Assembly: GCA_030690305.1 (NCBI GenBank)
Contig: JAUYHB010000020.1
Location: 23,535-87,534 of the forward strand
Length of the DNA: 64,000 bases
Reading direction: 5' to 3'
From: a bacterium
GTDB taxonomy: Bacteria > Patescibacteriota > Minisyncoccia > Phycocordibacterales > JAGLPS01
Below the pieces are notes generated by a model. That model was given only the letters and a program-made list of their open reading frames with translations. It did no database searches and had not been told where the DNA came from. The position numbers and the translations under genes were made by a program. Shown piece after piece: positions 2,629 through 53,972 of this stretch; position 1 is the stretch's first letter; each line of letters starts with the position of its first letter.

Positions 2629-2655
2629 ATCCGCCTCTCGGCGGATTTTAGTTTG
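2629..2655. terminator. Rho-independent terminator-like hairpin (atccgcc-tctc-ggcggat + ttta), shared between rpmB (+) and the convergent MBL gene (-)
   Basis: Perfect 7 bp GC-rich inverted repeat followed by a T-run, seen directly in the sequence. Confidence 0.5.
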
Positions 2656-3502
2656 CAAGTACGGGTTCTCCCCCGTCAGAGGTGAATATGATTGTTCCCA
2701 TTTCATCAGTTCGTACAATTTGTGCGCCAAAATCGGAGAGGGTCTGAAGGACTTCCGCGTGCGGATGCCCATATGAATTATTTTCACCCGCGGAAATCAC
2801 GGCATAGTCCGGAGAAGTCGCGCTTACGAATGCTTTTCCCGTGGAAGTTTTTGACCCGTGATGTCCGGCTTTTAAGACATCAACATCAACGCCTGTTGCG
2901 TTAAGAAATGTAAGATAATTTTCAATTTCTTTCGGAGAATCCCCGGTTAAAAGAAAGGATGATTCCTCATAAGTAAGAATTCCCACGATAGAGGCGGTAT
3001 TCGTTTCAAAATCAGTGACATCTCTGTCAGGAAACAGGACAAGAAAAGAGACGCCACTTCCCAAATTGATTTTCATTCCGCGCCTTGCAAGAATTTTTTT
3101 AGCACCTTCATTAGCAACAGATTTTCCAAGTGTCTTATATATCGCCGTATCGGAGGAAACTCCCGGTTCAATAAAAGTTTTTATATTGAAATGTTCAAAC
3201 ACCGAGGGAAGCCCACCGATATGGTCGGCGTCAGGGTGGGTGGCAAGCACGATATTTATAGATTTATCATATAAGGGCATCACTTTGGAAAGCTGCGAGA
3301 GCACCGCTTTCCCTTTTCCGCCGTCAATAAGCATTTGATTTCCGTTTGGTGCTTGAATAAAAATTGCATCACCTTGTCCGACATCAAGGAAGGTGACAGT
3401 AAGATGTCCCCTCTCTTCGCCATAAACCGCATACCATATAAAACCATTGACAATAAAAAGAAAGACGAGAACAAAAACCCTGAAACGTGTGTAGTAATTC
3501 AT
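2648..3502 (-). CDS. ComEC/Rec2-related metallo-beta-lactamase domain protein with N-terminal TM anchor (stand-alone C-terminal ComEC module)
   Basis: N-terminal hydrophobic helix, then an MBL signature (HPDADHIGG, GHHGS, YGHPH) resembling the ComEC C-terminal domain. The channel-domain ComEC gene is separate at 5587-7080. Confidence 0.65.
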   Translation of the reverse strand: MNYYTRFRVFVLVFLFIVNGFIWYAVYGEERGHLTVTFLDVGQGDAIFIQAPNGNQMLIDGGKGKAVLSQLSKVMPLYDKSINIVLATHPDADHIGGLPSVFEHFNIKTFIEPGVSSDTAIYKTLGKSVANEGAKKILARRGMKINLGSGVSFLVLFPDRDVTDFETNTASIVGILTYEESSFLLTGDSPKEIENYLTFLNATGVDVDVLKAGHHGSKTSTGKAFVSATSPDYAVISAGENNSYGHPHAEVLQTLSDFGAQIVRTDEMGTIIFTSDGGEPVLAN

Positions 3503-4715: not shown

Positions 4716-5459
4716 ATGAGGTATAGAACCTTTATGCTTTTTGTTATTGCAATTGTTACAATCTTTTCGCTCTGCGGATGCGCCGCAACCCAGATTGCAA
4801 TGGAGCACAAAAACCTTGATGTTCAGACAAAAATGTCTGACACCATCTTTCTGTCTCCCGAGGAATTGGGGGACAAAACCGTTTGGGTTGATTTGAAAAA
4901 CACGTCCGACAAAGACGTCGACCTTGGAGGAATCATTTCAACTCTTCAAGCAAGGGGCTATAGAATAGTCTCAAGTTACAAAGAGCCTCACAACCTAAGG
5001 CTTCAGGTTAATTTGCTACAAGCCGAAAAGACATCGCTTTCGGCCGCACAGCAATCGCTTCTCAACGGCTACGGCGGAGCGCTTGTCGGCGGAGTGGCCG
5101 GAGCATCTATCGGATCTCGCGGAGGATACGGAACTGCGGCTGCAGGAGGTATCGGCGGTGCACTTCTGGGAGGACTGATTGAAACAATGATAAACGCGAG
5201 CGTGAAGGACGTAACCTATATGATGGTTACGGACGTGCAGGTTTCCGCCCATTCGAATAAAAAAGTTTCTCAACAAATGGCCGGGAGCATAAGGCAAGGA
5301 ACATCGACCTCTCTGACGCAGAACGTCAGCGACGAGTCGGATTGGATAATTTACAGGACTCGGATAGTCAGCACGGCAAACAAGGTCAACCTGAAATTCC
5401 CTCAAGCATTACCGGAATTGGAGGCTGGCCTCAATCGGGTTATAGGAAATATTCTATAA
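4716..5459 (+). CDS. traT: TraT-family surface-exclusion / complement-resistance-like lipoprotein
   Basis: Signal peptide with an LCGC lipobox. Blocks recalled from F-plasmid TraT match (HKNLDVQTKMSDTIFL..., LKNTSDKDVDLGG, YMMVTDVQVS, YRTRIVSTANKVNLKF), with a central glycine-zipper. Strong RBS aaaggaggg upstream. Confidence 0.7.
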   Translation: MRYRTFMLFVIAIVTIFSLCGCAATQIAMEHKNLDVQTKMSDTIFLSPEELGDKTVWVDLKNTSDKDVDLGGIISTLQARGYRIVSSYKEPHNLRLQVNLLQAEKTSLSAAQQSLLNGYGGALVGGVAGASIGSRGGYGTAAAGGIGGALLGGLIETMINASVKDVTYMMVTDVQVSAHSNKKVSQQMAGSIRQGTSTSLTQNVSDESDWIIYRTRIVSTANKVNLKFPQALPELEAGLNRVIGNIL

Positions 5460-5541: not shown

Positions 5542-5626
5542 CTTTGTTTCGACTTCGACTCGAACGCTATGAACATGAAGACATGCTCACACGCTTCTCG
5601 CTCGTCGAAATAAAAATAGAAAAATA
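5542..5626 (+). repeat. Intergenic repeat family, copy 2 (long form: ggtattaaacactttgtttcgacttcgactcg ... cgcttctcgctcgtcgaaataaaaa)
   Basis: 5' and 3' modules are conserved with the other copies; terminal 7 bp inverted repeat tttcgac/gtcgaaa. Confidence 0.6.
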
Positions 5627-7080
5627 AAAATATATAACACAGCGGTTACAAAACCGGACAAATGAATCACCGCGACGGAAAACGGAAGATTTGAAAAGAA
5701 ATGGGCAACGGCAAAAACATATGAAGAAATAATAGAAGTGAAAAGAGAAAATGGCGCTGCAAGCACGGGAGAAAATAAACCGACACACGCCGTCACAAAA
5801 CCGCTAAACATGATAAGCGGAGTAAGAGGGAGGACTAAAAGATTGACCGGAAACGCCATAAGCGGGAACTCCCCTCCCCGGTAAACAATCAAAGGTAAGA
5901 CAAGGAGTTGCGTGGCAATGGTTGCAACGGCAATTTCTTTAAACTGTGCCGGAATTTTTGAAAAATATTTTTCTATGAGGGGAGAAATTGCTATGAGCCC
6001 GAGTGTGGCAAGAAAAGACAACTGGAATGACGGGTCGAAAGCGGCGGTATAAGGATTGAAAAGTATCATAAGAAAAGCGACAAGACATAACAGCCGCACC
6101 GGAGCGGCATGCCGATAAAGCAATTTCCCAAGAATAACAACAAGGGCCATGAGCGCCGCGCGGACAATGCTCGCTTCAAAACCAACCATTGAAACGAACA
6201 GCAACACAAATGTCGACGCGAGGACATATGCGATTGTACGCGGAAGAAAAGAAGAGAAAAGCCAAAGGCTTGCCAGCACCACGAGAGAAATGTTGTAACC
6301 GGACAAAACGACAATATGAATAATGCCCGTTTTCCTGAATTCATCTTCAACATCTTTCGGAATAGACTGTTTTTCACCGAGCAACATTCCCGCAACCAGG
6401 GAAGCGTGCGGTTCCGGAAGAGTGCGGATAAGGCTTTGGGTGAATGTCTTTTTCATGGCAAGCAATTCCCGTCTTAAAGAGAAACTTGCACTCGGCGAAA
6501 CCGATTGTATCTGCACATTTTTTATCGTATACAGAATGCCGTCTTTTTTCAGATACGAAACATAATCGAAGGTAATTCCATATTCATTTTCAAATGACTT
6601 CGGCTTTTCAAGTATGCCTAAAAGGAAAACCGTATCGCCGTACTGAAACGATTGATATGGATCTGTGGTAACAAGAATTTTGTTTTTCTTGGAAAAATTG
6701 GCCGGAATTTCAGTCCCATTTATGTTCTGCGCGAGAAGGATAATCCGAGCGGTCGTGTCCCCTTCCCGCGGCTCATCAACGATAATCCCGGAAACGGAAA
6801 TACGTTCTGAAACAAAATCCGTGAAACGCTCTTGCGGAACAGCGAAATGGAAACGTAATGACCCGAAAGCAAATGCCAAAAAGAAAACTGCCAGAGAGGC
6901 AAGCGGCACAAAGATTTTTCCGCGCGTTTTCTTCAGAAAGAAAAAATACACAAAGAGATAAAAGGAAATGAGAAAGAAAAAACAAATTGAATAAATATCA
7001 AGAGAAACAAAAGAGCGGAGGAAAACTCCGCCCACAAAGCCGAAAAATAAACTATACAACCCTGCCGCCAAGCCCTTCAT
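5587..7080 (-). CDS. comEC: DNA internalization competence protein ComEC/Rec2 (DUF4131 + competence channel domain; lacks MBL domain)
   Basis: 497 aa polytopic membrane protein. The N-terminal OB/DUF4131-like region and multi-TM competence domain are typical of ComEC. Its start overlaps the rnhA stop. Confidence 0.75.
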   Translation of the reverse strand: MKGLAAGLYSLFFGFVGGVFLRSFVSLDIYSICFFFLISFYLFVYFFFLKKTRGKIFVPLASLAVFFLAFAFGSLRFHFAVPQERFTDFVSERISVSGIIVDEPREGDTTARIILLAQNINGTEIPANFSKKNKILVTTDPYQSFQYGDTVFLLGILEKPKSFENEYGITFDYVSYLKKDGILYTIKNVQIQSVSPSASFSLRRELLAMKKTFTQSLIRTLPEPHASLVAGMLLGEKQSIPKDVEDEFRKTGIIHIVVLSGYNISLVVLASLWLFSSFLPRTIAYVLASTFVLLFVSMVGFEASIVRAALMALVVILGKLLYRHAAPVRLLCLVAFLMILFNPYTAAFDPSFQLSFLATLGLIAISPLIEKYFSKIPAQFKEIAVATIATQLLVLPLIVYRGGEFPLMAFPVNLLVLPLTPLIMFSGFVTACVGLFSPVLAAPFSLFTSIISSYVFAVAHFFSNLPFSVAVIHLSGFVTAVLYIFIFLFLFRRARSV

Positions 7081-7771
7081 ATTCCTTTATGAGCGCCGTC
7101 TCGTCCAAGTCGTCGCTTGTTTTTCGAAACCGGGCAGGTTTTCCCTTCACGGCCTTCTCGCACTCGCCCCATGTTGTGTGAATCCGAATAACACCGTCAA
7201 GCAGACTCACATACGAGTACGCTTTCACGTTTTTTCTTGACTTGCCTTCTTCGCGTTTTTCTCTTTTTCCTTCGTCATAGTCGGTATTTAAAATATCAAT
7301 GCCATATTTGGGAAGCGGGCCGATATAGAGTTTCATATCCGTGCTCGTTGAAAATGATGCGGCAATCATATCCACTCGCTCGTTTCCGGGAAGTCCACTA
7401 TGTCCGGAAACATGCCTCCACTCAATCTGTTTCTCTGAAATAAGACGGGCAAGATCTTGCCACAAAGAAAGATTAGCGACTTCTTTTTTGGCTTTTGTTT
7501 TCCATCCGCGTGTCTGCCAGTTCGTAAGCCACTTCTGCGCTCCGTTCACGACATATGCGGAATCGGTAAATAAGATGATCGGCGTATCATTTTTCACAGC
7601 CGAGAGTCCCCGCACAACCGCTTCCAATTCCATGGCATTGTTTGTTACGTTTTTTGCCGCACCTCCCAATTCCGCAACCGTTTCATTTTGGACAATAATA
7701 CTTCCCCATCCCCCATTACCTGGGTTCCCCGATGAAGCACCGTCCGCAAAAATAATCGTCTGATTCTTCAT
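7052..7771 (-). CDS. rnhA: Ribonuclease HI with C-terminal hybrid-binding (Cauli_VI-like) domain
   Basis: N-terminal RNase H fold (ADGASSGNPGNGGWGSI, TNNAMELEAV, HSGLPGNERVD). The C-terminal segment YSYVSLLDGVIRIHTTWGECEKAVKGKPARFRKTSDDLDETA matches the RNase H1 HBD consensus (TW.EC...V...PARFKKF...EA). Confidence 0.8.
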   Translation of the reverse strand: MKNQTIIFADGASSGNPGNGGWGSIIVQNETVAELGGAAKNVTNNAMELEAVVRGLSAVKNDTPIILFTDSAYVVNGAQKWLTNWQTRGWKTKAKKEVANLSLWQDLARLISEKQIEWRHVSGHSGLPGNERVDMIAASFSTSTDMKLYIGPLPKYGIDILNTDYDEGKREKREEGKSRKNVKAYSYVSLLDGVIRIHTTWGECEKAVKGKPARFRKTSDDLDETALIKEYEGLGGRVV

Positions 7772-7795: not shown

Positions 7796-9532
7796 TTATC
7801 CTACCGTATCAATGATGCGCAAGCGTAATTCCGTTCGACCAGCGAAATAAGATTTTTCAAGCGTCGCTACAAGATTTGTTTTTTCTCCTTTTTCAACGGG
7901 GAAAGAAAGATTTTCCGGTTTCATAAAAAATCCGATGGCTGAAACCCGATTGCCGTTGGGAGACGAGAGCGTGAGTTTGAGATGCTCTTTTCCTTTGCCG
8001 AACAGTGAAACGTCAAAAACATCCGCCTGTTTGAAAAGAAATGTCGGCTTGGGATTGGCAATTCCAAACGGCGCAAGCGACGAAACAATACCGTATGTTC
8101 TGTCGTTCACTTCATCGAGAGAAAGGGTTGTGTCAACGTGCATAAGCGATTCTTCGGCCACGTGTTCAATCGTTTTGAATACTTTATTGAGACTGTCTTC
8201 AAGTGTGTGAATATGTTCGTGCGAAACGGAAAATCCGCCGGCAAGTTTGTGCCCGCCGAATTTCAGAAAATGGTCTTTCGCACCTTCCATTAATAACACA
8301 ACATCCGTATTCCCCTCCGAACGGCACGAGCCTTTTATGGATTCCGATTCCGCTCGTCCCCACAAAAAAACCGGTCGTTCATATTCTTCGACAATACGCG
8401 TTGCAACAAGACCGAGCAAAGACGGTTTCCATTTAGGATTTCCAACCACGACAACATTTGAAAGTTTCCGTTCCGAAAGCACGTGTTTGATTTCTTTAAC
8501 GAGAGAAGAAACGATTCCTTTGCGTTCATCGTTTATGGAGTTTAAATGCGATGCAAGCATCTGTGCTTCCTGTCTGTCATCCGTCGACAATAATTTGAAC
8601 GCGTCATACGGGTCTCCCATTCTCGAGGCTGCATTGAGGCGCGGGGCAATCATAAAAGAAATATCGTCTTCGGAAAGTTTCGACGGGAAAATTTTCACCG
8701 ATTCAAGCAACGCTTTTACTCCTGGACGTCGTGCGTGACGCAAAACGGTAAGACCATAAAAAGCGAGTGCGCGGTTTTCACCCGTCAGAGGCACCATGTC
8801 GGAAAGTGTTGCGATACCTACCATGTCCAACATCCATTTTTCTTTTCCTTTCGGCAGATTAAAGTTTTTTACCAAAAGAAGCGCCTGAATAAGTTTAAAC
8901 GTCACTCCCGCTCCGCACAGCATGTCCTCGGGATATTCGCATCCGTCTCTTTTTGGGTTAAGAATCGCATATGCCGGAGGAAGTTTTTCTCCCGGCACAT
9001 GATGATCAACAATGATGACGTCGATGTTGCGAGATTGGGCGAGGGTGATGGGTGAAACATCCGTCGTACCACAGTCTATGGTAATGATGAGAGAAACATT
9101 TTGCTCCGAAAATTCGTCAATCGCCTCTTTATGCACCCCGTACCCTTCGTCATGGCGATGCGGAATGTATACGGAAACATTTGTGTAACCGATGTATTTG
9201 AAAAAATCCGAAAGTATGACTGCGCCCGGAATACCGTCCGCGTCATAATCGCTGTAAATAACGATTTTTTCTCCTTTTTCAACCGCCGAAAGAATGCGCT
9301 TGACGGCTTTGTCCATATCTTTCAATAGATACGGGTCATGGAGGTCTCGTTCATAGTCGGGGTTTAAAAAAATGTCCGCCTCTTTTGCGTTGTTCACTCC
9401 ACGATTGGAAAGGAGGGTAGCAAGAAGAACGGGTAAATCCATCAGTTCTTTCGGAATTTCCTGTTTTTTGAAGACAATCTTCCTCATGTATAATGAGTGT
9501 AACATGGAAGAAAAAGAGTGCATTTTTTGCAA
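7796..9532 (-). CDS. recJ: Single-stranded-DNA-specific exonuclease RecJ (DHH/DHHA1)
   Basis: 578 aa with DHH family motifs (IYSDYDADG, DHH, GGH). Confidence 0.8.
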   Translation of the reverse strand: MQKMHSFSSMLHSLYMRKIVFKKQEIPKELMDLPVLLATLLSNRGVNNAKEADIFLNPDYERDLHDPYLLKDMDKAVKRILSAVEKGEKIVIYSDYDADGIPGAVILSDFFKYIGYTNVSVYIPHRHDEGYGVHKEAIDEFSEQNVSLIITIDCGTTDVSPITLAQSRNIDVIIVDHHVPGEKLPPAYAILNPKRDGCEYPEDMLCGAGVTFKLIQALLLVKNFNLPKGKEKWMLDMVGIATLSDMVPLTGENRALAFYGLTVLRHARRPGVKALLESVKIFPSKLSEDDISFMIAPRLNAASRMGDPYDAFKLLSTDDRQEAQMLASHLNSINDERKGIVSSLVKEIKHVLSERKLSNVVVVGNPKWKPSLLGLVATRIVEEYERPVFLWGRAESESIKGSCRSEGNTDVVLLMEGAKDHFLKFGGHKLAGGFSVSHEHIHTLEDSLNKVFKTIEHVAEESLMHVDTTLSLDEVNDRTYGIVSSLAPFGIANPKPTFLFKQADVFDVSLFGKGKEHLKLTLSSPNGNRVSAIGFFMKPENLSFPVEKGEKTNLVATLEKSYFAGRTELRLRIIDTVG

Positions 9533-10324: not shown

Positions 10325-11434
10325 CTACGACAGTGCCTCAATTCCCGGTAATGTTCCTTTTGCCAAGAAATCAAGCATTGCTCCTCCTCCCGTGGAAATA
10401 AAGGAGAACTTATCGTTTAGTTTGAGTTTTGCAATCGCAGCGATTGTGTCCCCTCCTCCGACAACAGAGTGCGCATCAGAATCGGCAATGGCTTTTGCAA
10501 CAGCAAGCGTCCCTTCGGTAAAACTTTCTTCATAGGCACCCAAGGGTCCGTTCCATAAAAGTGATTTTGAGCGCTTGACCGCGTCAACGATTTTTTCAAG
10601 CGTGTGTTCTCCCGCATCGACGATTCTGTCATTGTCCTGGATGTGAGAAACAGGAATCGAAAGAGACGTGCCACGCCTTTCTACAACGACATCTTCCGGA
10701 AGGATAAGGCGTTCGTCATTTAAAAAATTTCCAAGGTTAAAGTCTCCCTCGGTATACAAGGATTTTCCGATTGACAATCCTTTTTCTTTGAGAAAATTAT
10801 TTGCAAGTGCGCCCGCGACAACAACCGTATCGGCAAGAGAAAAGAATTTCTCTATAAGAGGCAGTTTGGTGTCAAATTTTGCGCCACCCAAAATAAATGT
10901 GAAAGGATGCTCCGGATTCATTATCCCCCCAAGCTGGGTTGCCTCTTCAATAAAACGAAATCCCGCATATCCGGGGATGAATTTTGGTACGCCAACGATT
11001 GAGGCATGTGTTCTGTGGGAGGCGGGGAAGGCTTCGTTGACGTAGACGTCGGCAAGAGAGGCAAGGGATTTGGCGAACTGTTCGTTATTTTCTTTTTCTC
11101 CCGGATTGAGACGCAGGTTTTCAAGGAGGACAATGTCACCCCCCTTCATTGTATCCACAAAAGCGGATGAGCCGAGATACTCCTTCTCGAAAGTAAGCGG
11201 GAAAAATTGTTGCAGATATTCAAATACCGGATACAAAGAGTTTTCCTCTTTTCCTTCAAAGTGGCTTGCGAGAATAATTTTTGCGCCGCGTTCTTTTAAG
11301 AAACGGATGGTGGGAAGCGCGGAAGCAATACGGAAATCGTCCATGACGGCTCCCGAGAGAACAGGCACATTGAAATCAGCGCGCAGAAAAACTCTGACAC
11401 CCGCGTAATTGTCTATGTCTTTAATGGTACGCAT
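10325..11434 (-). CDS. pgk: Phosphoglycerate kinase
   Basis: N-terminal RVFLRADFNVPV motif plus other PGK signatures. Confidence 0.9.
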   Translation of the reverse strand: MRTIKDIDNYAGVRVFLRADFNVPVLSGAVMDDFRIASALPTIRFLKERGAKIILASHFEGKEENSLYPVFEYLQQFFPLTFEKEYLGSSAFVDTMKGGDIVLLENLRLNPGEKENNEQFAKSLASLADVYVNEAFPASHRTHASIVGVPKFIPGYAGFRFIEEATQLGGIMNPEHPFTFILGGAKFDTKLPLIEKFFSLADTVVVAGALANNFLKEKGLSIGKSLYTEGDFNLGNFLNDERLILPEDVVVERRGTSLSIPVSHIQDNDRIVDAGEHTLEKIVDAVKRSKSLLWNGPLGAYEESFTEGTLAVAKAIADSDAHSVVGGGDTIAAIAKLKLNDKFSFISTGGGAMLDFLAKGTLPGIEALS

Positions 11435-11437: not shown

Positions 11438-12232
11438 TTACAATTTTTCCGCGATTGAAAGAATTTCTCCAAAACCTTCGGGTTCAAGACTTTGTCGTCC
11501 AACCAAAAGACCGTCAACTTCACCTTTGCCCAAAATGTCTTCGGCGTTGCGGGGACTTACCGAACCCCCATAGAGAACCGCCATACTCATTCCCGCACTG
11601 TATCCGTATACATCGGACACGACTTTTTTTACGAAAAGCACCATTTCATGGAGCGAGGCGCCCGTGATAGCTTCACTGTCGCTTTTGCCAATCGCCCAGA
11701 CAGGTTCGTAGGCAACAATAACGTTCTCAAGAGATTTTTTTTGGACCTTGTCGAGAGACTGTTTTATTTGGGAAGAGAGGAATTGAAGATATTCTCCGTG
11801 AGTATCGCGTTCCCGTTCTCCGACGCAAAGAATAACCTTGAGTCCGTCTTTGAGAGCAATTTTTATTTTTTGATTGACTATTTCATTGGTCTCGCCGAGA
11901 GCGCGCCGTTCGGAGTGGCCGATGATTACGTATGTTACCCCAACGTTTTTAAGTATTTTTGACCCCACTTCCCCGGTAAACGCTCCTTCATTTTCCCAAA
12001 AAACATTTTGTGCACCAAGAATAATCTTTCCTTTTACAAGAGGCTGTAATAAAGAAAGGTACGGGAACGGAGGGCAGATTACCACCTTGCTTTTCCTTAT
12101 TTTTGCGAGCTTTTTGCGGATAGAGAGAAAGGTTTTTTTAGCCGTTTCTTTGCTTGTCGGGTTAAGTTTCCAGTTACCCACAATGAGTTTCTCTGATTTT
12201 TTCATTCCCCCATTATAGCAAGACCGCCCCAC
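11438..12232 (-). CDS. tpiA: Triosephosphate isomerase
   Basis: VGNWKLN and IIGHSERR motifs. The true start may be the internal MKKSEKL at 12205. Confidence 0.9.
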   Translation of the reverse strand: MGRSCYNGGMKKSEKLIVGNWKLNPTSKETAKKTFLSIRKKLAKIRKSKVVICPPFPYLSLLQPLVKGKIILGAQNVFWENEGAFTGEVGSKILKNVGVTYVIIGHSERRALGETNEIVNQKIKIALKDGLKVILCVGERERDTHGEYLQFLSSQIKQSLDKVQKKSLENVIVAYEPVWAIGKSDSEAITGASLHEMVLFVKKVVSDVYGYSAGMSMAVLYGGSVSPRNAEDILGKGEVDGLLVGRQSLEPEGFGEILSIAEKL

Positions 12233-12248
12233 TTGTGTGGGGCGGTCT

Positions 12249-13691
12249 TCAGATTTCTTTCCAGGAAATCGTTGAATACTGGTCGGAGGTCAAAGGAAAG
12301 TTCGGTGGAGGGCCGTATAAGAGATTGCCGTCGTAAATAATGTTTCTTGTTTCATAGCCGGTACCGTTGGTATACGCAAAACCATAACGTTGGTACGTGG
12401 CTATCATTCCATACGAAGTAATAGTGTCTCTGTCATGATACGGGGAACAACGTTGGGAACCTCCTGAAGGTGGAGCGTAATAAAACCGTCCGACTCGACC
12501 ATTCTGGGCAACAAGAGCGGCATCAATACGCAAATCGTTTTCGGATACCATACCTATGTTTATATTTCGTTGGGCAATAAGGGCAATAACGTCCTGGCCG
12601 TCATAATTTGTGTACAGAAGATCATTATTTACGGTAATGTCGCGGCGTTGTGTCGGATTATCCGGAAAACGTCCCGCGGCAATAGTGAGACGGGCCGTAT
12701 TTATGGTTCCATTTACCCACACATGGTCTTCAAGAAAAATGAGACCATTTGCCGGATTGGCGTATGTTCCGAGAAGTTGCTGGGTATTGATACTCCACGT
12801 TCCCCAGTTTTCTTGAGATGAAGCGCATCCCGACGGAGTCGAGACGACCGTATTGACGCGATACAAGTCAAACGTGTCGTTTGTTTTAAGCACAATATGG
12901 TATCCGAGTGAACCGGACGCGGCAAAATACCTTCCACCGGATTGCGCGAGGGCCTTTATATTGGAAAGGTCCGAAGTGATTCCCAAAAAGTCAACGGGGG
13001 CGACCGGGTATTGCCGTCCGGCCTCAAAGACATCGGGACGCAATGGCGGGTTCGTAGGAGGCACAGGATCCGCTGGGGAAAGACACGTGTGCACCGCCCA
13101 TGAGGCGACGGTACACGCATCGGAGTCGCTGTCTGTTGTTGTACTTTGACCGCTTGTGACAATATTGTGGGCCAAACCGTCAAAACGGATTCCGAAATTC
13201 GAGTGAATGGGCCCGAACACTTCGGTCCCTTCTCCAAAGCGCATTCTGTCACTTGCCACTACAGCGTATTTAGCAAAAGACGGAATGGCAAGACGGACCT
13301 CTATGGCACGGGACACGGAAATAGGCGACGTGACAATTCCTGTTGACCGAACAGTCACTATGGTTGAGCCCGTAGCAGGAGGAGTAATATCGAGTCTGTA
13401 CTGTCCGATTGTGTTTCCGTCCTTATCGTAAAAATCGTGATAATACGGGCCGGGACCTCCGGTTCCATCCTGATAATCATCGGCGTCATGAGCAAGATGC
13501 CAACGATAATAGTCGGCGCCGGCTTCGGCAATTTGGAACGCCTGTTCCCGGACTTCAATGTGCCGGATAGCCTTAAGCAAAAGCGAAGTCCAACTCACAA
13601 AGGCCGTTGTCACCACAATTGCGATGAAAGCGAAAACAAGGACGTTAACGATGATGACTCCCCTATTCTTTTTTCTTATGTCGTCTCTCAT
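12249..13691 (-). CDS. PilX-like type IV pilus minor component (PilX_N domain)
   Basis: N-terminal TM followed by the QAFQIAEAG motif of the PilX N-terminal domain, then a large Thr/Gly-rich extracellular region. Last gene of the pilus block. Confidence 0.55.
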   Translation of the reverse strand: MRDDIRKKNRGVIIVNVLVFAFIAIVVTTAFVSWTSLLLKAIRHIEVREQAFQIAEAGADYYRWHLAHDADDYQDGTGGPGPYYHDFYDKDGNTIGQYRLDITPPATGSTIVTVRSTGIVTSPISVSRAIEVRLAIPSFAKYAVVASDRMRFGEGTEVFGPIHSNFGIRFDGLAHNIVTSGQSTTTDSDSDACTVASWAVHTCLSPADPVPPTNPPLRPDVFEAGRQYPVAPVDFLGITSDLSNIKALAQSGGRYFAASGSLGYHIVLKTNDTFDLYRVNTVVSTPSGCASSQENWGTWSINTQQLLGTYANPANGLIFLEDHVWVNGTINTARLTIAAGRFPDNPTQRRDITVNNDLLYTNYDGQDVIALIAQRNINIGMVSENDLRIDAALVAQNGRVGRFYYAPPSGGSQRCSPYHDRDTITSYGMIATYQRYGFAYTNGTGYETRNIIYDGNLLYGPPPNFPLTSDQYSTISWKEI

Positions 13692-14317
13692 AGGTTATCT
13701 TTCAGATTCCGAAGTGATACCTGGCTTGTGAATGTTTTGGGAGCAGGTTCCCGATTAGGGTCCGCGTCAATAACAATGCTGATTTTCACAAGACGGATGG
13801 TTGCGGTGGTTACGGGCTGAGAAAGAGGTGCGGTCGTGCCGTCATAGTTCGTATCGTAGTAGGTAAAAACGGGCTGTGCTCCGTTTTGAACGTTACGAGC
13901 AAGAAGTGTTGTTACCTGTTCGGATGCCGGATTGTATTGCAAAGGACTCCCCGTCGGTTCAATCACTCCCTTTTTTAGATCGGTCGCGGACAGAAAATAC
14001 CGCACCCTTTCTTGAATACCGTCATTGTCGATATCGCTGTAAAAGGCAAAACTTTGCGTTCCCGCCTCGGCTATCGGATACGCCCCGATGCCCGATGGCG
14101 AAGCGCTTCTCGCTTCACGAACCATAATACGCAACACGGAACGTGCATCCTGTGTTCCAAGCAAACTTTTGTCTATAAACCCCGCGAAATAAAGAATGTT
14201 CCTCTGAAATGTTCCCACGGCAAGGATGAGAATGCCGGCAATCGCTCCCACAACAACAAGTTCCGGGAGAGACATTCCTTTTTGTGGGTACGCTTGGTTT
14301 TTTTTCTTATTGAACAT
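13688..14317 (-). CDS. Type IV pilin-like / pseudopilin protein
   Basis: N-terminal prepilin-like leader and hydrophobic segment KGMSLPELVVVGAIAGIL with Glu at +5. Confidence 0.6.
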   Translation of the reverse strand: MFNKKKNQAYPQKGMSLPELVVVGAIAGILILAVGTFQRNILYFAGFIDKSLLGTQDARSVLRIMVREARSASPSGIGAYPIAEAGTQSFAFYSDIDNDGIQERVRYFLSATDLKKGVIEPTGSPLQYNPASEQVTTLLARNVQNGAQPVFTYYDTNYDGTTAPLSQPVTTATIRLVKISIVIDADPNREPAPKTFTSQVSLRNLKDNL

Positions 14318-14320
14318 TTT

Positions 14321-16141
14321 TTACGGACTTGGAATTAAAATAACCTCTCGTTGTTGCCACGCGCTACTCACAAGCACACCCTCAACAACAGTTGTATCGT
14401 ATCCGGGCTTGGAAACCGTCAATGTATAGGTATCTGCGGAAATTCCCGAAAAAATAATTTGCCCGGGAGGGGTACATTCGGAAGTGAAAGTAAAAGAAAT
14501 ATCGGCAACAGTCGGAGTGAAGGAGGAATTATCGGTGTGTAAAAATATTTTATACCGCAAATACCTGTCGCCGTTGTGGGCAGAAGCAATGTTGGAGTTT
14601 GAAACCGTATAATATGTGCCCGCCGTACCGTCCGGACCGAGATAATTCCACGTTGTTGTAGCCTGGTCATTTGTCGTCGCTATTTGGATGCGCACACTCT
14701 CCGCTCCGGTCGCCGGCGGTTGGTCTTGGGGTTGCCACATAATATTGTAAAAATTACTTTCCGAGCCCGTGTCAAATGTCGATGAGACAAGCCACCCATC
14801 GGAAGCATATGAACCGAATATTTGCTTAAGGGTCATGATACCGGCAGGGTTGTTGGTCTCAATATTGCTGTCGGAATCAAGGTATTTATTCGTGTCAACA
14901 AAAAACGCTTGTCCTGCACCGCCCGACCAATCAGTTTGGGTTAAGAAACCTCGTCCGGTCACAAGAGTTTCCGTATACGAAGCACCGTCATCCAGAGTAA
15001 CCGATGCCCCCGATAAAGGAAGTCCCGTCGCAGAGTCTTTTATCGTCACCATAAGGCTGTCGGGGTTTTCCGGAGCAAGTATGATTTGGACGTTATGTAT
15101 CGCCCCGGGATTGGCGTCAAAAGGAAATAAGGGATTCGAACCGATGAGATCGTGGGACGCGTCGGTAACCACCAATGTATAGGTGTCCCATTCCAAGCCT
15201 GTGATTGTTTCTGTTCCGTTGGAGTTGTCAGTTTGGTAATTCTGGCTGAACTTGATGACATTCGGGTCGGCCCCAATAAGTTTTGACCCTGTGAGCGTGA
15301 AAGGAACGTCAACCACAGCCGCACAATTGTCACGCACCGTTGAAAGATACAGCGTTGCGGTGTGATCTATGGCAAAACTTGACTGAGTCACCTGCTGTAA
15401 AACCACTGTCGCATGCGGAGAAACCGGATTATTGACTTCACTGCTTGAATACGTGGTTACGGTTGAATATCCTTCCTTGGAAACAGTAATTTTATACCGC
15501 TCAACTCCGGGCGGGATATCGACAATCTGGAGCATTCCTTGCGAATTGGTCACGTCGTTTATATTTATGGCGGGAGTTCCCGAGACGCTTTCAATATGGA
15601 CGGAGGCATCGGGTACGTCTACCCCGTTTGCATCAAACACACGAACAAACAAAGCACCGTTCGTCGAGGCGGTTTCAAGATTTTTCGGGGCAATTCGGGT
15701 TGTAAATGTAAGCGGTGTAAATATATTGCACGTCGTGCAATCAACGGTTATTTCGACAAGTTTATTATCAGCCGGGGAAAGGTCGTTCGGACTTCCGCCG
15801 ATAGTACCGTCAAAGGAAAGGTCAACATTACGGATGGTTGAGGTAACGAGAAACGTGTATGAGTCGCGCACAATCGTTTGTTGATACGGGATTTTCCCTG
15901 AAGGCAAACCTCCGATAATACCGACATCGCTATACGGAAGATTCCGAATGATTTCAAACTGTTCGTTTGCGAGGTTTGCCGCGACTATTTTGGACGTTGA
16001 AAGACGGACCGCCTGAAGCACCGACAAGTAGCCCTGATAAACACTTACGGCAATAACCAAAAACAACGCGGCCCCAATGAGCGTTTCAACAAGCGTAAAA
16101 CCTGTTTTTTGTTTTTTCATTCTACTGAATAACATCGACAA
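14321..16141 (-). CDS. Large type IV pilin-like protein (606 aa) with class III signal/N-methylation motif
   Basis: Canonical prepilin motif KTGFTLVETLIGAALFLV, followed by a long beta-rich Thr/Ser/Asn-rich region. Confidence 0.7.
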   Translation of the reverse strand: MSMLFSRMKKQKTGFTLVETLIGAALFLVIAVSVYQGYLSVLQAVRLSTSKIVAANLANEQFEIIRNLPYSDVGIIGGLPSGKIPYQQTIVRDSYTFLVTSTIRNVDLSFDGTIGGSPNDLSPADNKLVEITVDCTTCNIFTPLTFTTRIAPKNLETASTNGALFVRVFDANGVDVPDASVHIESVSGTPAININDVTNSQGMLQIVDIPPGVERYKITVSKEGYSTVTTYSSSEVNNPVSPHATVVLQQVTQSSFAIDHTATLYLSTVRDNCAAVVDVPFTLTGSKLIGADPNVIKFSQNYQTDNSNGTETITGLEWDTYTLVVTDASHDLIGSNPLFPFDANPGAIHNVQIILAPENPDSLMVTIKDSATGLPLSGASVTLDDGASYTETLVTGRGFLTQTDWSGGAGQAFFVDTNKYLDSDSNIETNNPAGIMTLKQIFGSYASDGWLVSSTFDTGSESNFYNIMWQPQDQPPATGAESVRIQIATTNDQATTTWNYLGPDGTAGTYYTVSNSNIASAHNGDRYLRYKIFLHTDNSSFTPTVADISFTFTSECTPPGQIIFSGISADTYTLTVSKPGYDTTVVEGVLVSSAWQQREVILIPSP

Positions 16142-17348
16142 GCGAGTACGTCGGACCGATCATGGCGAAAACAAAGAACCCGACACCGATTCCGACAAAA
16201 ATCATGAGAAGCGGTTCAATAATGGTCGACATGTCCCTTGTCTTTTGGTCGACTTCGTCTTCATAAAACTGGGCAACACCCATGAACATGTCGGTCAATT
16301 TCCCCGTCTCCTCTCCGACACTTGCCATTTCGGATACGAAAATCGGATACAAGTCGGTTCGCTGGGAAAGCACTTCGGAAATATTTTCTCCTTTTTCAAC
16401 CTGCATCTCCGCTTTTTTCAAAAGATCCTTGTAGAAAGAGTTTTGCAGCACGTCCCCGGTAATACGTATGGCAATAATCAAATCGACGCCGGCAGACAGA
16501 AGGGAGGAAAGTGTTCGTGCGGTGCGCGCCGAATTTATTTCTCTTGTAAGACCGTTTATGATGGGCGTTTTGAGCATAATGACATCAATAAGACGCGAGC
16601 CCTGTTTGGTGCGGGCAAAAGCGGTAATGGAAGAAAAGAAAAGAACAACAAATAGAATAGTGAGAATAAAATTATTACTCAAAAAATCGCTCACTCCGAT
16701 GAGAATACGCGTGGAAAGAGGAAGCTCAACGCCAAGCTCTTTAAACGTTAAAGTAAGGGTAGGTACAACAAATACAAGCATCAGAACGGCAATCACGGCC
16801 ATCAGCGCGACAATGACCGCCGGATACATCATGGCCCCCTGAATGCGTTTCTGTAAGGTGTATATTTTCTCCATTTGCATGGCAATGACTTTGAGGGATT
16901 GCGACATATTTCCGCTTTCCTCTCCCGCCTTAACCATGGAAATAAAGAGCGAGGTGAATACATCCGGAAATTTTTGCATTCCCTGACTCATCGTCTCTCC
17001 TTTATCAATTGATGCAATGAGCTCCGCGAGCACTTCCTTGAGTTTCTTGTTTTTCGTCTGTCGTTCCAAAACCGAAAGGGCACGGGAAACCGAGAGTCCG
17101 GCGTCAATCATTGAACCGAGGTTGCGGGCAAATTGTATTTTCTCCTGTGTTTTGACTTTACCGGCAAAAATATTTCCAAGGCGAAACATGCTGAGAAAAG
17201 AATTTTTTTGCCCGATTTCATGGACATATACAACCGCTTCCCCGTCATTTTTTATTTTTTGGTACACGCCGGCACGGTCTTGGGCTTCCATTGTTCCCTC
17301 ATAGGACTGTCCCTCCTTATTTATGGCTTTGAAAGTGAATAGTGGCAT
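16122..17348 (-). CDS. pilC: Type IV pilus assembly platform protein PilC (GspF family)
   Basis: Two GspF repeats and three TM segments. Start chosen at MPLFTFK (17348) just downstream of the pilB stop. Confidence 0.8.
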   Translation of the reverse strand: MPLFTFKAINKEGQSYEGTMEAQDRAGVYQKIKNDGEAVVYVHEIGQKNSFLSMFRLGNIFAGKVKTQEKIQFARNLGSMIDAGLSVSRALSVLERQTKNKKLKEVLAELIASIDKGETMSQGMQKFPDVFTSLFISMVKAGEESGNMSQSLKVIAMQMEKIYTLQKRIQGAMMYPAVIVALMAVIAVLMLVFVVPTLTLTFKELGVELPLSTRILIGVSDFLSNNFILTILFVVLFFSSITAFARTKQGSRLIDVIMLKTPIINGLTREINSARTARTLSSLLSAGVDLIIAIRITGDVLQNSFYKDLLKKAEMQVEKGENISEVLSQRTDLYPIFVSEMASVGEETGKLTDMFMGVAQFYEDEVDQKTRDMSTIIEPLLMIFVGIGVGFFVFAMIGPTYSLVDVIQ

Positions 17349-17361
17349 TGTGAAAATAAAA

Positions 17362-19119
17362 TTATTCCGAGGAGACGACCCGCAAAACTTCTTCAACGGT
17401 GGTAAGCCCCTGTGCGGATTTAAACAGCCCATCTTCAATCATGGTCATCATGCCCTCCTTCTTTGCCTGATCGTCTATGGCCTGCACCGGCGCGCCTTTA
17501 ATAATAAGATCCTTAATTGGAGGAGTCACTCGGAGCACTTCATAGATTCCTATGCGACCGGCATATCCGTCCGGAGCATCCGCGGATTTTTTTGGATGAT
17601 ACAGAGGAACTTGCGACCAATCGACGTCTTCTTTGACAATTTTTTCCTTTTTGAGAAAACCTAGAACTTTTTCCATATCAACGGAACTTTCGAGAGATTT
17701 AATTTCGTTCTTACTTAGGAAATACTCTTCTTTTGCACCTGAAAGTTTTCTGATGAGACGTTGGGCAATGACGATGTTTAAAACCGACACAAGAAGGAAT
17801 GGTTCGACTTTCATATCAACAAGACGAGGGATGGCTCCAGCAGCCGAGTTTGTGTGCAGAGTTGAAAGAACCAAATGACCGGTAAGAGAGGCGTTAACGG
17901 CAAGAGAAGCCGTTTCACCGTCGCGGATTTCACCAACCATGATAATGTCCGGATCCTGACGGACAAGCGTGCGCAAGCCGCTTGAAAACGTAAATCCGAT
18001 TTCCGGTTTTACCTGCGTCTGGTTGATTCGTTTCATTTGATACTCAATCGGGTCTTCAATGGTTGAAATATTCACATCGGGGGTATTGAGAATATCAAGC
18101 ATCGTATACAGAGTTGTTGTTTTTCCTGAACCCGTCGGACCAGTGGTTAAAATAATTCCCGTCGTGAGATTCATTGCGGTATGAATACTCTCGAGCGCCT
18201 CTCCGTGAAAACCAAGTGCTTCAAGGGTGAACCCGGAAACGCTTTCGCGGAGCACGCGCATCACGGTTTTTTCACCAAAATATGTCGGAAGCGTGGATAC
18301 GCGGAATGACACATTTTCACCGTTCAGCTCGATTTTGAAACGCCCGTCTTGCGGAAGACGTTTTTCGTCAAGTTTAAGATTTGAAAGCACTTTGATACGG
18401 GCGGTGATGGAGGGTGCACTGTTTTTGGGAAGTACCATGGCATCATGCAACAAACCGTCAATACGGTATCGGACAAGCAACTGTTCTTCCATCGGTTCAA
18501 TATGAATGTCAGAGGCATTTTGAATAATTGCGTGTTTGAGGAGTGTATCGACAATACGGATGACAGGAATGTCTTCGGCAAGTTTCTTCAGGTCGCTTTC
18601 CGACGCATCTCCCTCCCCCCCCTGTTCCGAAATCATCTTAAGAGAGGTCGCCTCCTTTTGAATAATGTCGCCAAATTCCGCCTTGAGGCTCTTTTGATAC
18701 TGCAACAGAGCACTTTTCATCGATTCCTTGTCGGTAAGCCGCGGAAGAATTTTTAAACCGGTTTTTTTCTTGATAAAGTCGATAGCCGCCAGGTCTTCGG
18801 TATCAAGCATTGCGACTTCAAGAGTTTTATCCGCGACCCGGAAAGGAATAATATTGTGGTTGCGCGCGATGGGCTCAGGGATGAGAGAAAGCACGTCAAA
18901 ATTTATTTTTTCTCCCTTCAAGTCCACAAAAGGAATACCGAGAATATGCGCCTGAATCTTCCTCAGGTCGTCATCGGTAATTTTTCCTTCTTCCACGAGT
19001 AATTGACCGACGCTTACTTTGCGCTCGGATGCTTTTTTATCCGCGGACTCAAAATCTTCCCGAGAAATCAGGTCGGAATCAAGGATAAATTCTTTTAATT
19101 GGGTTTCCTCAATGTGCAT
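17362..19119 (-). CDS. pilB: Type IV pilus assembly ATPase PilB (GspE family)
   Basis: Walker A GPTGSGKTT, Asp/His boxes, GspE N-terminal domain. Start chosen at MHIEETQL. Confidence 0.85.
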   Translation of the reverse strand: MHIEETQLKEFILDSDLISREDFESADKKASERKVSVGQLLVEEGKITDDDLRKIQAHILGIPFVDLKGEKINFDVLSLIPEPIARNHNIIPFRVADKTLEVAMLDTEDLAAIDFIKKKTGLKILPRLTDKESMKSALLQYQKSLKAEFGDIIQKEATSLKMISEQGGEGDASESDLKKLAEDIPVIRIVDTLLKHAIIQNASDIHIEPMEEQLLVRYRIDGLLHDAMVLPKNSAPSITARIKVLSNLKLDEKRLPQDGRFKIELNGENVSFRVSTLPTYFGEKTVMRVLRESVSGFTLEALGFHGEALESIHTAMNLTTGIILTTGPTGSGKTTTLYTMLDILNTPDVNISTIEDPIEYQMKRINQTQVKPEIGFTFSSGLRTLVRQDPDIIMVGEIRDGETASLAVNASLTGHLVLSTLHTNSAAGAIPRLVDMKVEPFLLVSVLNIVIAQRLIRKLSGAKEEYFLSKNEIKSLESSVDMEKVLGFLKKEKIVKEDVDWSQVPLYHPKKSADAPDGYAGRIGIYEVLRVTPPIKDLIIKGAPVQAIDDQAKKEGMMTMIEDGLFKSAQGLTTVEEVLRVVSSE

Positions 19120-19238
19120 GGAGCGATATGTACAAAAATTATACCATAGCCGCGCCGCAGATTGACTTATTGCGCTAATTGTGTATGATATAGGCATTAT
19201 CAAGTTCGCCTCACGGCGGACTCATTTTTTTATAACGT

Positions 19239-22560: not shown

Positions 22561-22635
22561 TTATAATTTCAGAACACCTTTCTTGTAAGCCCTCCGTTTT
22601 GAAAGTTATAAATTTAATATTCGTCTGTATACACT

Positions 22636-23274
22636 ATGAACATCCAAATGTGCGGCAAATCGTTATTCCTTGTTTTAGCTTCTGTCGCTTTCCTGTTTGC
22701 GGGCAACAGTGTTTTTGCCCAAATTACAAATACGGCGACAGGAACAACAACCGACGAAAAGGAGAGGAGTAGAGCAACTATCCAAGAGAAAAAAGATGGC
22801 ATCAGAACGAATGTGGAAGAGAAAAAAGAATCACTAAAAGATCGCCGTGAGGCTTTATCAAAAGAAATAAAAGACAGACTGAAAGCAAGAATAAGAGGTT
22901 TTGTCCAACAAATGGAAAGACGGCTGGGAGCCGCAATTGAACGAATGGAGAAAATCGCCGAGAGAATCGCATCCCGAATCGAAAAAATAAAAGTGACCGG
23001 AATCGATACCACGGAGGCTGAAACATATCTTGGAGCCATGAAAACCGATATTTCCGAAGCAAAAGCACTCGTAGGAAAAATCCCGGAAGCAATTGAAGAA
23101 AGTTTGCTTGCGGAAGAAATGCGTAAAGCGTTTGAAAATGTGAAAACTATTATTGAAGAAGCGAAAAGAGAGATACAGAGCGCGCATGATAATGCGAAAA
23201 AAGCGATCGGAAGCCTTATGGAGATGGTCAAGGAATCACAGTCGGACGCTTCCACTACCCCATCAATAAACTAA
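22636..23274 (+). CDS. Secreted coiled-coil protein (hypothetical)
   Basis: Signal peptide, then a highly charged K/E/R-rich helical sequence. Confidence 0.45.
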   Translation: MNIQMCGKSLFLVLASVAFLFAGNSVFAQITNTATGTTTDEKERSRATIQEKKDGIRTNVEEKKESLKDRREALSKEIKDRLKARIRGFVQQMERRLGAAIERMEKIAERIASRIEKIKVTGIDTTEAETYLGAMKTDISEAKALVGKIPEAIEESLLAEEMRKAFENVKTIIEEAKREIQSAHDNAKKAIGSLMEMVKESQSDASTTPSIN

Positions 23275-32838: not shown

Positions 32839-33025
32839 GAGCCGTTCGTAATCCCTTTTTCAAAGCACGAATATTTTTCTGCTAAAAAATTCCTTGAGCT
32901 CATGCCGTCGCATTCGCTAGTCTCTGAAAAAGGGATTACTTACTCCAACCGGCAGAAAGACAAAAGGAGAATAATAAAAAGATATAGAGCAACGGCTTTT
33001 CCCGACAGTTCCTGTGGGGGTTTTT

Positions 33026-41411: not shown

Positions 41412-42476
41412 ATGATTAAAAAATATAGGTACCTTATAGTCTTTTCTCTTATGCTTCTTGTCGCTGTAAGTATTTTCTTACTGTGGGACAGGCTGAATCA
41501 AAAATTAAATCCTGAAAAAGAAATCTCGGAAGGAGAAGTGAAGGAAACCGTAGCCGACTCAAATATACCGATTTCCCAAAGAGTAACATTTGAAAAAATT
41601 TCGGAACCATCACGGGCATTTCCCGAAGAAAGCGGCCTTAATGTTCCGGTATTGCCAATTCCTCAGCCAAAAATGGATAAGGTTACGGAAAGCGAGGGGT
41701 TTCTCCCGAAATATGTCACCTTTTTTGAAAATATAAAAAAGGCGGCAGAGGCCGTCCAAGAAGTCGTGGAGAGAAAAGTAAGCACACCAACATCTTCAAG
41801 CCCGGGAGCTTTGTCTTCGACATTTTCCGCGACCTCAACGCAGGAAATCAAATTAACGCTCACGGACGAAGAGTTCAACTATCTGTATCCTTCTTATTTT
41901 TTACAAGATCTTCAGGATAGCCAAAATCTTCTGAAAGAGTACGACCCGAGCTATGAACCGCTTCCGGAAATAAAAAACGATTCACACGTCCGTTTTGTTC
42001 AGGAGAAGATCGTTGTCGCACTGCTCTCCGCAAACATGCTGAACACCGATGAGGCACAGCGGTATATCACGACCATTCGTTTTACACTTCCCCAAATTCA
42101 ATTTTTTGAGCTTGAATTACGAAAGCAAGCTCTCGAAAATCGCTCCTTCGTGCAAAAAATGACTGATTTTCTCATCGCAAATTTTTCAAAAACAAAACAA
42201 GCACCTCAAGGAATCTACCTGGCGGGACTTGCTGACCAACTGAAGAATCTTTTGCTTCCCACGGCACAAGCGGGAGGAGGGGGACCGTGCGGGGAATGCC
42301 ACATATTACCCGTGTGTGTTCAAGAGGGCGTGGCAACCCCTATAGCAGGTACGGAAACCTGGACGGCTTTTTGCCAGTGCACAGGATGTTTGTATGGGAA
42401 CGGGTGTCTTGATAGATGTTTCCCCTCAGCTGCTATTTGGGATCCGACGACCGGAATTTGCGGGTGCGGAATATAG
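41412..42476 (+). CDS. Hypothetical signal-anchored protein with cysteine-rich C-terminal domain
   Basis: N-terminal TM. The last 65 aa contain 10 Cys (GPCGECHILPVCVQEG...CQCTGCLYGNGCLDRC...GICGCGI). Confidence 0.45.
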   Translation: MIKKYRYLIVFSLMLLVAVSIFLLWDRLNQKLNPEKEISEGEVKETVADSNIPISQRVTFEKISEPSRAFPEESGLNVPVLPIPQPKMDKVTESEGFLPKYVTFFENIKKAAEAVQEVVERKVSTPTSSSPGALSSTFSATSTQEIKLTLTDEEFNYLYPSYFLQDLQDSQNLLKEYDPSYEPLPEIKNDSHVRFVQEKIVVALLSANMLNTDEAQRYITTIRFTLPQIQFFELELRKQALENRSFVQKMTDFLIANFSKTKQAPQGIYLAGLADQLKNLLLPTAQAGGGGPCGECHILPVCVQEGVATPIAGTETWTAFCQCTGCLYGNGCLDRCFPSAAIWDPTTGICGCGI

Positions 42477-49172: not shown

Positions 49173-49213
49173 TTTCAGGTAAGGATTTTCTATAACGAAC
49201 GCAGTTCGGCATA

Positions 49214-50101: not shown

Positions 50102-50104
50102 ATT

Positions 50105-52081: not shown

Positions 52082-52082
52082 A

Positions 52083-53971: not shown

Positions 53972-53972
53972 T

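Follow-up and report, generated by a model that had tools for sequence, protein, structure and literature searches.

A three-pilin set conserved across Paceibacteria, with a ComZ-like solenoid protein, as the likely priming and tip complex of a type IV pilus

The 64 kb stretch of Patescibacteria DNA analysed here (contig JAUYHB010000020.1; hereafter the window) carries three contiguous genes, for pilin-like proteins of 599, 209 and 480 amino acids (aa) that we call P600, P209 and P480, directly behind pilB and pilC, which encode the extension ATPase and the platform protein of a type IV pilus. It is likely that the trio acts as a set of minor pilins that primes a pilus of the monoderm type and forms its tip, and that the five genes encode the core of this pilus in a member of the Paceibacteria with an ultrasmall genome. 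Judging from its predicted fold, P480 is probably a tip pilin of the type of Thermus ComZ and the solenoid PilX proteins. Together with the glycolytic genes tpiA and pgk, the five genes form a run of seven closely packed genes on the minus strand at 10.3–19.1 kb (Table 1). An initial annotation of the window, made from the letters alone, had placed five open reading frames (ORFs) of a pilus block here, with tpiA-pgk downstream on the same strand, and all of them were recovered. The pilus genes are separated by gaps of 13, 1 and 3 nt, and the stop codon of the P209 gene overlaps the start codon of the P480 gene by 4 nt (ATGA), which suggests that translation of these two genes is coupled.

The AlphaFold2 model of P480 (predicted local distance difference test, pLDDT, of 90.3; predicted template modelling score, pTM, of 0.84) consists of a helix (residues 2–68), four strands (83–135), a long run of short parallel strands with a single helix within it (237–252), and a last strand (473–479). 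The top match of this model in Foldseek was Thermus ComZ (PDB ID: 6QVI) with E 1.2e-10, a value lower by seven orders of magnitude than those of the ice-binding proteins that came second (from E 2e-3). Ice-binding proteins are also named in the ComZ paper as the neighbours of its solenoid. ComZ has been described as a GspK-like pseudopilin domain in which an ice-binding-type solenoid is inserted between the penultimate and the last strands, and a 2026 preprint reports that all cyanobacterial PilX proteins share this architecture of a pseudopilin with an inserted solenoid. The order found in P480, with four strands, the solenoid and then the final strand, agrees with the insertion described for both, the insertion point being taken from the order of secondary-structure elements rather than from coordinates. 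Furthermore, the N-terminus of P480 (NRG/VIIVN, the slash separating positions −1 and +1) is a hydrophobic helix without Glu5, and position +5 is occupied by N, Q, P, S or H among its orthologues; like the fold, a helix lacking Glu5 is a mark of ComZ and the solenoid PilX proteins. The initial annotation had labelled P480 a PilX_N-domain protein. This label did not hold, since Pfam scans, which took in every window ORF of at least 130 aa, gave no match for P480 even at E ≤ 10, PilX_N (PF14341) included, and PilX_N was matched weakly by 9 of its 82 orthologues (best 5.3e-4). A phage-tailspike-like enzyme was also considered for P480 and was rejected, because a search against BFVD returned no depolymerases and only DUF3494/ice-binding-like proteins.

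P600 is a prepilin with a canonical leader, as annotated. Counted from MKKQKTG/FTLVE, the 606-aa ORF yields 599 aa, and the orthologues of both P600 and P209 retain Gly−1, Phe or Met at +1 and Glu+5, with Phe+1 being kept in those of P600. Against Pfam, P600 scored 20.9 bits with N_methyl (cut-off 21.2) and 54 bits with CarboxypepD_reg (PF13620), and SpaA was matched as well. Its AlphaFold2 model (pLDDT 83) starts with an α1 helix (10–59) and a four-strand pilin sheet (80–143), which are followed by about five β-sandwich domains. The top Foldseek matches in the PDB were the CnaB/SpaA-type immunoglobulin (Ig) domains of Gram-positive pilins (E 5e-11), a resemblance at the domain level only. P600 is in this way a modular type IV pilin, which is defined by a pilin module joined to domains that are not pilus-specific. 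The initial annotation had suggested examining structure predictions of both large proteins for a pilin N-terminal helix with adhesin domains and had described long regions rich in Thr, Ser and Asn; the models show an α1 helix and extra domains in each protein, and Ser, Thr and Asn make up 27.7% of P600 and 21.5% of P480. Both proteins are acidic, with an isoelectric point (pI) of 4.3 and a family net charge of −25 for P600, and of 5.3 and −14, respectively, for P480. Four cysteines of P600 are conserved (C128, C131, C266 and C549), and the pairs C128/C131 and C266/C549 in P600 and C289/C415 in P480 suggest disulfides or a CxxC site.

P209 is a small prepilin whose leader reads ...QKG/MSLPE. 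It had been annotated as pilin-like, in agreement with its score of 18.2 bits against TIGR02532 (cut-off 16.3) and with the N_methyl matches of 74 of its 76 orthologues. When the family profiles of P209 and of the two large proteins were run against the PDB sequences, the matches were confined to pilin α1 helices. In a six-frame scan of the window, class III signal motifs were found at two positions only, those of P600 and P209; the motif scan revealed no further pilin gene in the window, a small major pilin included.

Both large proteins belong to families of uniform length. The two families comprise more than 2184 and more than 3417 homologues of full length; members of the 599-aa family share 55–65% identity at about 597 aa, apart from three near-identical entries (87–100%), and those of the 480-aa family share 59–73% at about 480 aa, apart from one entry at 91%. 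P600 itself is a 100% match to NCBI U1D31_03265 from the 'Patescibacteria group bacterium' metagenome-assembled genome (MAG) GCA_034375565.1. Since length and sequence are kept across more than 2000 homologues, the large ORFs are not fusions caused by frameshifts, an objection that the initial annotation had raised against itself and that is hereby ruled out. By the same measure its description of these pilins as unusually large has to be revised: their sizes are the norm across Paceibacteria, and they resemble minor or tip pilins instead of enlarged major pilins. In a pattern scan with one genome per species, the 480-aa family occurred in at least 538 species, from Taylor-, Kaiser-, Yanofsky-, Giovannoni-, Campbell-, Wolfe-, Harrison-, Sung- and Portnoybacteria and from entries named 'Paceibacteria/Paceibacterota'. 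The same synteny was seen in many MAGs labelled 'uncultured Candidatus Saccharibacteria', a label that we suspect to be generic in these cases. In a profile search of 1.84 billion cluster representatives, 361 clusters were matched at E ≤ 1e-30, and the number rose to 1515 at E ≤ 1e-3. Over the 33 loci that hold all ten genes, the median identity to the window was 71% for PilB and 61% for P480, followed by RecJ and P600 (53% each), PilC and Pgk (50% each), TpiA (49%), P209 (48%), RNase H (43%) and ComEC (36%). All domains of P600 and P480 are about equally conserved (column identity 0.67–0.80), and no variable adhesin-like module was observed; in P480, 70 residues are invariant.

The arrangement of the genes is conserved as well. 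In a sample of 80 related loci, for which the denominators differ from feature to feature, P600, P209 and P480 were contiguous and in the same order in 76 of 78, and this fixed order extends across hundreds of species. Directly upstream of the trio stood pilC (59/75), pilB was upstream in 59 of 66 loci, tpiA came next downstream in 51 of 76, and comEC was found no more than 10 kb downstream in 38 of 52, usually in the order tpiA-pgk-(HIT, opposite strand)-recJ-rnhA-comEC. Two loci (L042 and L048) read pilB-pilC-trio-pilM-pilN-pilO. In locus L037, pilM-pilN-pilO directly follow the trio, and four further pilin genes, of 143, 150, 184 and 431 aa (L037:4819-7438), lie between pilC and the trio; the 431-aa protein lacks Glu5, and this extra set suggests that some Paceibacteria have two minor-pilin sets, as is the case in cyanobacteria. 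In L002 the trio stands alone, with pilMNO-pilB about 7 kb away. In L025, L038 and L080, the trio is followed by small canonical pilins (142–151 aa, GFTLIELLVV...), which are candidates for the major pilin. Because the trio adjoins pilMNO in some relatives, it appears to be one component of a complete type IV pilus machinery. Consequently, the proposal of a "minimal or monoderm-type" pilus in the initial annotation can be kept in its second part, in line with the lack of a secretin in the window and with the affiliation to the Patescibacteria, and not in its first.

The identities given to PilB and PilC were confirmed by Pfam, with T2SSE (8.9e-121) and MshEN (5.5e-16) in PilB and two stretches of T2SSF (3.2e-58) in PilC. 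The best NCBIfam model for PilB was TIGR02538 (type IV-A PilB) with 533 bits, under its equivalog cut-off of 676, and the GspE model scored 527 bits, also under its equivalog cut-off. PilC likewise remained under the cut-offs of the GspF, PilC and ComGB models. The PilB/GspE and GspF/PilC models outscore the ComGA and ComGB models by far; with 251 bits for ComGA (cut-off 300) and 172 bits for ComGB (cut-off 240), the ATPase and platform protein are not of the ComG type. The program-made ORF of pilB reaches to a TTG at 19203, but the ATG at 19119, which agrees with the gene end given in the initial annotation, is the likely start.

As the initial annotation stated, the remaining machinery was not seen in the window. 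Pfam gave no pilT, pilM/N/O, prepilin peptidase (pilD) or pilQ, and no secretin GspD or GspC/L/M, among its ORFs of at least 130 aa, nine of which had no Pfam match at all, and the PilM and PilO of a relative found nothing in the window as phmmer queries. Beyond the window, one end reaches only fusA and tuf. PilD has been reported to be widespread in the candidate phyla radiation (CPR) and PilQ-type secretins to be generally absent from it, while type IV pili with pilBCDMT are already known in CPR and Paceibacteria. By analogy with the relatives, the missing machinery is most likely encoded elsewhere in this genome.

From these families, signals, folds and gene orders we infer the following course of assembly, tip location and ligand. 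P480 would enter first and cap the filament, as in the GspK-GspI-GspJ and PilVWX complexes, and P209 would dock beneath it. P600 would then join through its α1 helix, with its Ig-like and carbohydrate-binding-like domains displayed as a stalk. The complex would prime the polymerisation of a small major pilin encoded elsewhere, as would be PilD, PilM/N/O and probably PilT. At the end of the pilus, the complex might contact a conserved ligand, either extracellular DNA, which ComEC would then take over, or a generic glycan on a host or another surface.

Several points weigh against this reading. The match of P480 to ComZ rests on a predicted structure, and the TM-scores between the two are low (0.28–0.30), presumably because the helix is long and free and the domains meet at a different angle. 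In addition, a profile built from 82 P480 orthologues did not match ComZ at E ≤ 1 when run against all PDB sequences, so that sequence homology to ComZ does not accompany the shared fold. A GspI/J-like role of P209 is suggested by its position and size only. The presence of a major pilin, PilD and PilMNO in this genome, none of which was seen in the window, is assumed from relatives. It is also conceivable that P600 belongs to the shaft, and the second set of four pilin genes in L037 implies that the trio may be accessory and not the core priming set.

With regard to the function of the pilus, one quite conceivable reading, which we put at somewhat below an even chance, is adhesion, whereby the Ig-like/carbohydrate-binding-like stalk of P600 and the solenoid of P480 would form a tip adhesin for host attachment or twitching. 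The matches of P600 to CarboxypepD_reg, which has a carbohydrate-binding-like fold, and to the SpaA/CnaB domains of Gram-positive adhesive pilins are in line with this. So is the literature, in which TM7x binds its host by PilX1 and PilX2, large minor pilins without a PilD signal, Southlakia cannot grow as an epibiont without type IV pili, and Paceibacteria attach to hosts and carry pilin clusters; a cyanobacterial PilX-EPS subfamily has also been proposed as an adhesin in the preprint. However, the known hosts of these lineages range from bacteria to methanogenic archaea, and yet no domain of the large proteins is variable. Such even conservation is unlike that of host-range determinants, which makes adhesion compatible only with a generic ligand. 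A universal ligand accounts for uniformly strong conservation better than a host-specific ligand would, and the lead of P480 in median identity over TpiA and Pgk also speaks for a DNA-capture pilus, a reading that we hold to be possible but doubtful. P480 and P209 would in this case act as a tip DNA receptor like ComZ and PilA2, and retraction would feed ComEC, with RecJ and RNase H downstream, for nucleotide scavenging or transformation. ComZ, the best structural match of P480, binds DNA and an adjacent small pilin and is needed for transformation and not for piliation. Moreover, the order from the trio through tpiA-pgk to recJ-rnhA-comEC is retained in most relatives, and ComEA is often missing in CPR according to the literature, so that the place of a DNA binder is vacant. 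On the other hand, the preprint finds solenoid-type PilX proteins in both the competence and the motility pilin sets of cyanobacteria, which means that the fold does not specify DNA binding, and P480 and P600 both have an acidic pI. Synteny around the trio covers a long block of housekeeping genes that includes nusA, glycolysis and superoxide dismutase (SOD) genes, the HIT gene on the opposite strand leaves comEC outside the operon of the trio, and where the trio is relocated (L002, L025, L033 and others) comEC does not accompany it. In Saccharibacteria, type IV pili are reported to be essential independently of comEC, and T4P-2 mutants remain competent. The more specific claim that the trio is the extracellular DNA receptor of the Paceibacteria competence pilus, replacing the often-missing ComEA and feeding ComEC, appears to us rather unlikely. 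If true, it would explain why a surface tip protein is more conserved class-wide than glycolytic enzymes, in bacteria that are host-dependent and auxotrophic for nucleotides. Adhesion and DNA uptake are not mutually exclusive.

Two further readings concern the structure itself. P600 as the major shaft subunit, which would give a thick pilus with Ig-like domains along its whole length, is improbable. It has the canonical leader and Glu5, it is encoded by the first pilin gene after pilC, a frequent position of major pilins, and no small pilin was found in the window; but approximately 450 extra residues per subunit would clash in the helical packing, and the literature on modular pilins argues for the tip (PMC8179133). 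Small canonical T4a-type pilins adjoin the trio in some relatives, and the conservation of P600 is far above that usual for major pilins. A type II secretion-like or ComG-type pseudopilus in place of a true pilus is improbable as well. PilB and PilC do score nearly equally against the GspE/GspF models, P480 resembles the GspK class, and some homologues are labelled 'PulG pseudopilin' by the Joint Genome Institute (JGI). Against this, neither a secretin nor GspC/L/M was seen in the window, the organism is presumably a monoderm, the ATPase has a long N-terminal MshEN region and stays under the ComGA cut-off, and PilM/N/O adjoin the trio in relatives. The minor-pilin priming and tip complex is the explanation that we prefer.

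In comparison with known systems, P480 is similar to ComZ of Thermus thermophilus and the cyanobacterial solenoid PilX in size (about 480–550 aa) and in having a small pilin encoded alongside, in the hydrophobic N-terminal helix that lacks the usual pilin signature and in the GspK-like pilin sheet with an ice-binding-type triangular solenoid ahead of the last strand, and its inferred place at the tip corresponds to the position proposed in the preprint, whereby the solenoid of cyanobacterial PilX plugs the filament tip instead of PilY1. Unlike ComZ, it shows no detectable sequence similarity to that protein, is acidic and would act in a monoderm without PilQ, and its partner is a 599-aa modular pilin in place of PilA1-4 or PilV/W/FimT. 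As a set, the trio resembles GspK-GspI-GspJ and FimU-PilV-PilW-PilX, which are likewise minor pilins encoded together beside assembly genes, with one Glu5-less member that carries an inserted domain and others with Glu5. It differs from these complexes by having three genes and not four, no match to PilV, PilW, T2SSI or T2SSJ in Pfam, one member of four times the usual size, and no PilY1.

The closest relatives in design of P600 are the modular pilins PilB and PilC of Streptococcus sanguinis, in which functional modules are grafted C-terminally onto a small pilin module. Raynaud et al. 2021 (PMC8179133) list N_methyl with PF13620 among the 15 commonest modular pilin architectures and cite CPR examples. 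Compared with other modular pilins, P600 stands out by its approximately five tandem β-sandwich domains and by about 53–58% identity over its full length across a bacterial class. Its C-terminal domains share the CnaB/prealbumin-like fold of BcpA, SpaA, RrgB, PitA and B. anthracis TIE; in contrast to these sortase-assembled pilins, P600 has no LPXTG/sortase signal and takes the type IV assembly route, and the TM-scores of 0.13–0.18 again indicate a resemblance at the domain level only. By their description, the T4P-1 and T4P-2 pili of Saccharibacteria are also comparable, being Patescibacteria pili with small major and large minor pilins. The large minor pilins of TM7x without a PilD signal are candidate tip proteins; the TM7x modules are a jelly-roll and a β-propeller and not a solenoid as in P480.

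Upstream of pilB, where the intergenic region is shared with the divergent nusA, direct reading of the sequence shows TGGTATAAT, which resembles a promoter element of the extended −10 type; it is a match to the consensus only. At the other end of the pilus genes, a GC-rich hairpin stands directly 3′ of the P480 stop codon. It is not a canonical terminator, because the minus strand lacks a T-run. The hairpin is followed by TGCTATAAT, and given this succession tpiA-pgk may have a promoter of its own. The short distance from TGCTATAAT to the tpiA ATG suggests that the tpiA transcript is leaderless or nearly so, and the program-made start of the tpiA ORF, a GTG at 12232 inside the hairpin, is probably wrong. 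The hairpin and −10 element were also considered as a conserved operon boundary between P480 and tpiA, which was rejected, as a strong hairpin occurs at this place in only 3 of 49 loci and TGnTAwAAT in 9 of 49.

As noted by the initial annotation, comEC, recJ and comM are present in the window. The contigs of MAG GCA_034375565.1 break near 32.9 kb of the window (32900-33000; JAXMJZ010000026.1/JAXMJZ010000024.1), where the window reads through. An independent Logan contig (L088) spans this junction, which rules out that the window is a concatenation artefact and places comM truly about 20 kb from the pilus block. ComEC has the Competence and DUF4131 domains and no metallo-β-lactamase (MBL) domain. 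Three genes (about 2 kb) from comEC, the window encodes a separate MBL protein of 284 aa, which contains the motif FLDVGQGDAIFIQ and has a membrane helix at its N-terminus. In 32 related loci its homologue comes after comEC and sodA, and the protein may represent the nuclease domain of ComEC as a gene of its own. The literature on CPR ComEC notes only the absence of the MBL fusion.

Between comEC and sodA lies the gene of a TraT-family lipoprotein (Pfam TraT 2.6e-62, lipobox LCGC), which is 41–44% identical to the TraT proteins that conjugative plasmids carry in Pantoea, Legionella and Edwardsiella. None of the 80 related loci has this gene, so that it was probably acquired in this lineage alone, which is odd for a presumed monoderm. 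The window also encodes an apolipoprotein N-acyltransferase, Lnt (LNT_N and CN_hydrolase), which is notable next to the TraT lipoprotein in a genome thought to be without an outer membrane. Adjoining yidC, dnaA and dnaN, there is a Gram-positive-type type IV secretion cluster, in which several ORFs besides those in Table 1 have no Pfam match and which agrees with the system described for Patescibacteria in PMC12102498. Finally, one region holds a pair of overlapping, near-complete antisense ORFs (213 and 212 aa). The plus-strand one looks like a coiled-coil, apolipoprotein-like secreted protein with weak Pfam matches; a similar-looking family of genes for about 262 aa occurs in the loci of 16 relatives.

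Table 1. Positions of the genes and sequence elements discussed in the text (numbering of the window).
Feature	Position	Strand	Remarks
pilB	17362-19119	minus	extension ATPase of the pilus; 585 aa with the ATG at 19119 as start
pilC	16122-17348	minus	platform protein, 408 aa from MPLFTF; begins 13 nt past the pilB stop
P600	14321-16120	minus	599-aa modular prepilin
P209	13688-14317	minus	small prepilin, 209 aa
P480	12249-13691	minus	probable ComZ/solenoid-PilX-like tip pilin, 480 aa
tpiA	11438-12205	minus	Pfam TIM 1.3e-73; neighbour, no pilus part
pgk	10325-11434	minus	Pfam PGK 9.1e-107; neighbour, no pilus part
Promoter-like extended −10 element TGGTATAAT	19138-19146	minus	19 nt 5′ of the pilB ATG
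GC-rich hairpin	12221-12248	minus	stem of about 12-13 bp
TGCTATAAT	12220-12212	minus	6 nt 5′ of the tpiA ATG at 12205
recJ	7796-9532 (as ORF)	minus	Pfam DHH/DHHA1/RecJ_OB
rnhA	7052-7771	minus	Pfam RNase_H
comEC	5587-7080	minus	Pfam Competence and DUF4131
comM	39800-41350		Pfam
MBL protein	2648-3502	minus	284 aa
TraT-family lipoprotein	4716-5459	plus	between comEC and sodA
Antisense ORF pair	22614-23274	both	213 and 212 aa
lnt	42433-43983	minus	LNT_N and CN_hydrolase
Type IV secretion cluster	about 48200-59000	plus	Gram-positive type
PrgI-family protein	52764-53198	plus	type IV secretion cluster
VirB4/TraG-like ATPase	53910-55784	plus	type IV secretion cluster
T4SS_pilin	57285-57713	plus	type IV secretion cluster

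Type IV pili in CPR, modular pilins and ComZ/solenoid PilX have all been published before. The structural assignment of the 480-aa family, hitherto 'hypothetical', and the fixed trio are modest additions to these, and no paper that links ComZ to CPR was found in the literature searched. Recombinant P480, with or without P209, is open to studies of DNA and glycan binding without cultivation of the organism. A large part of bacterial diversity belongs to the Patescibacteria, which live in dependence on other cells and are almost all uncultured. How they contact hosts and scavenge DNA is most often explained by their type IV pili. The Paceibacteria among them keep a fixed set of three pilin proteins beside pilBC under unusually strong constraint. 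Combined, these results extend the known biology of modular pilins and solenoid tip pilins to a new lineage and do not overturn current views.

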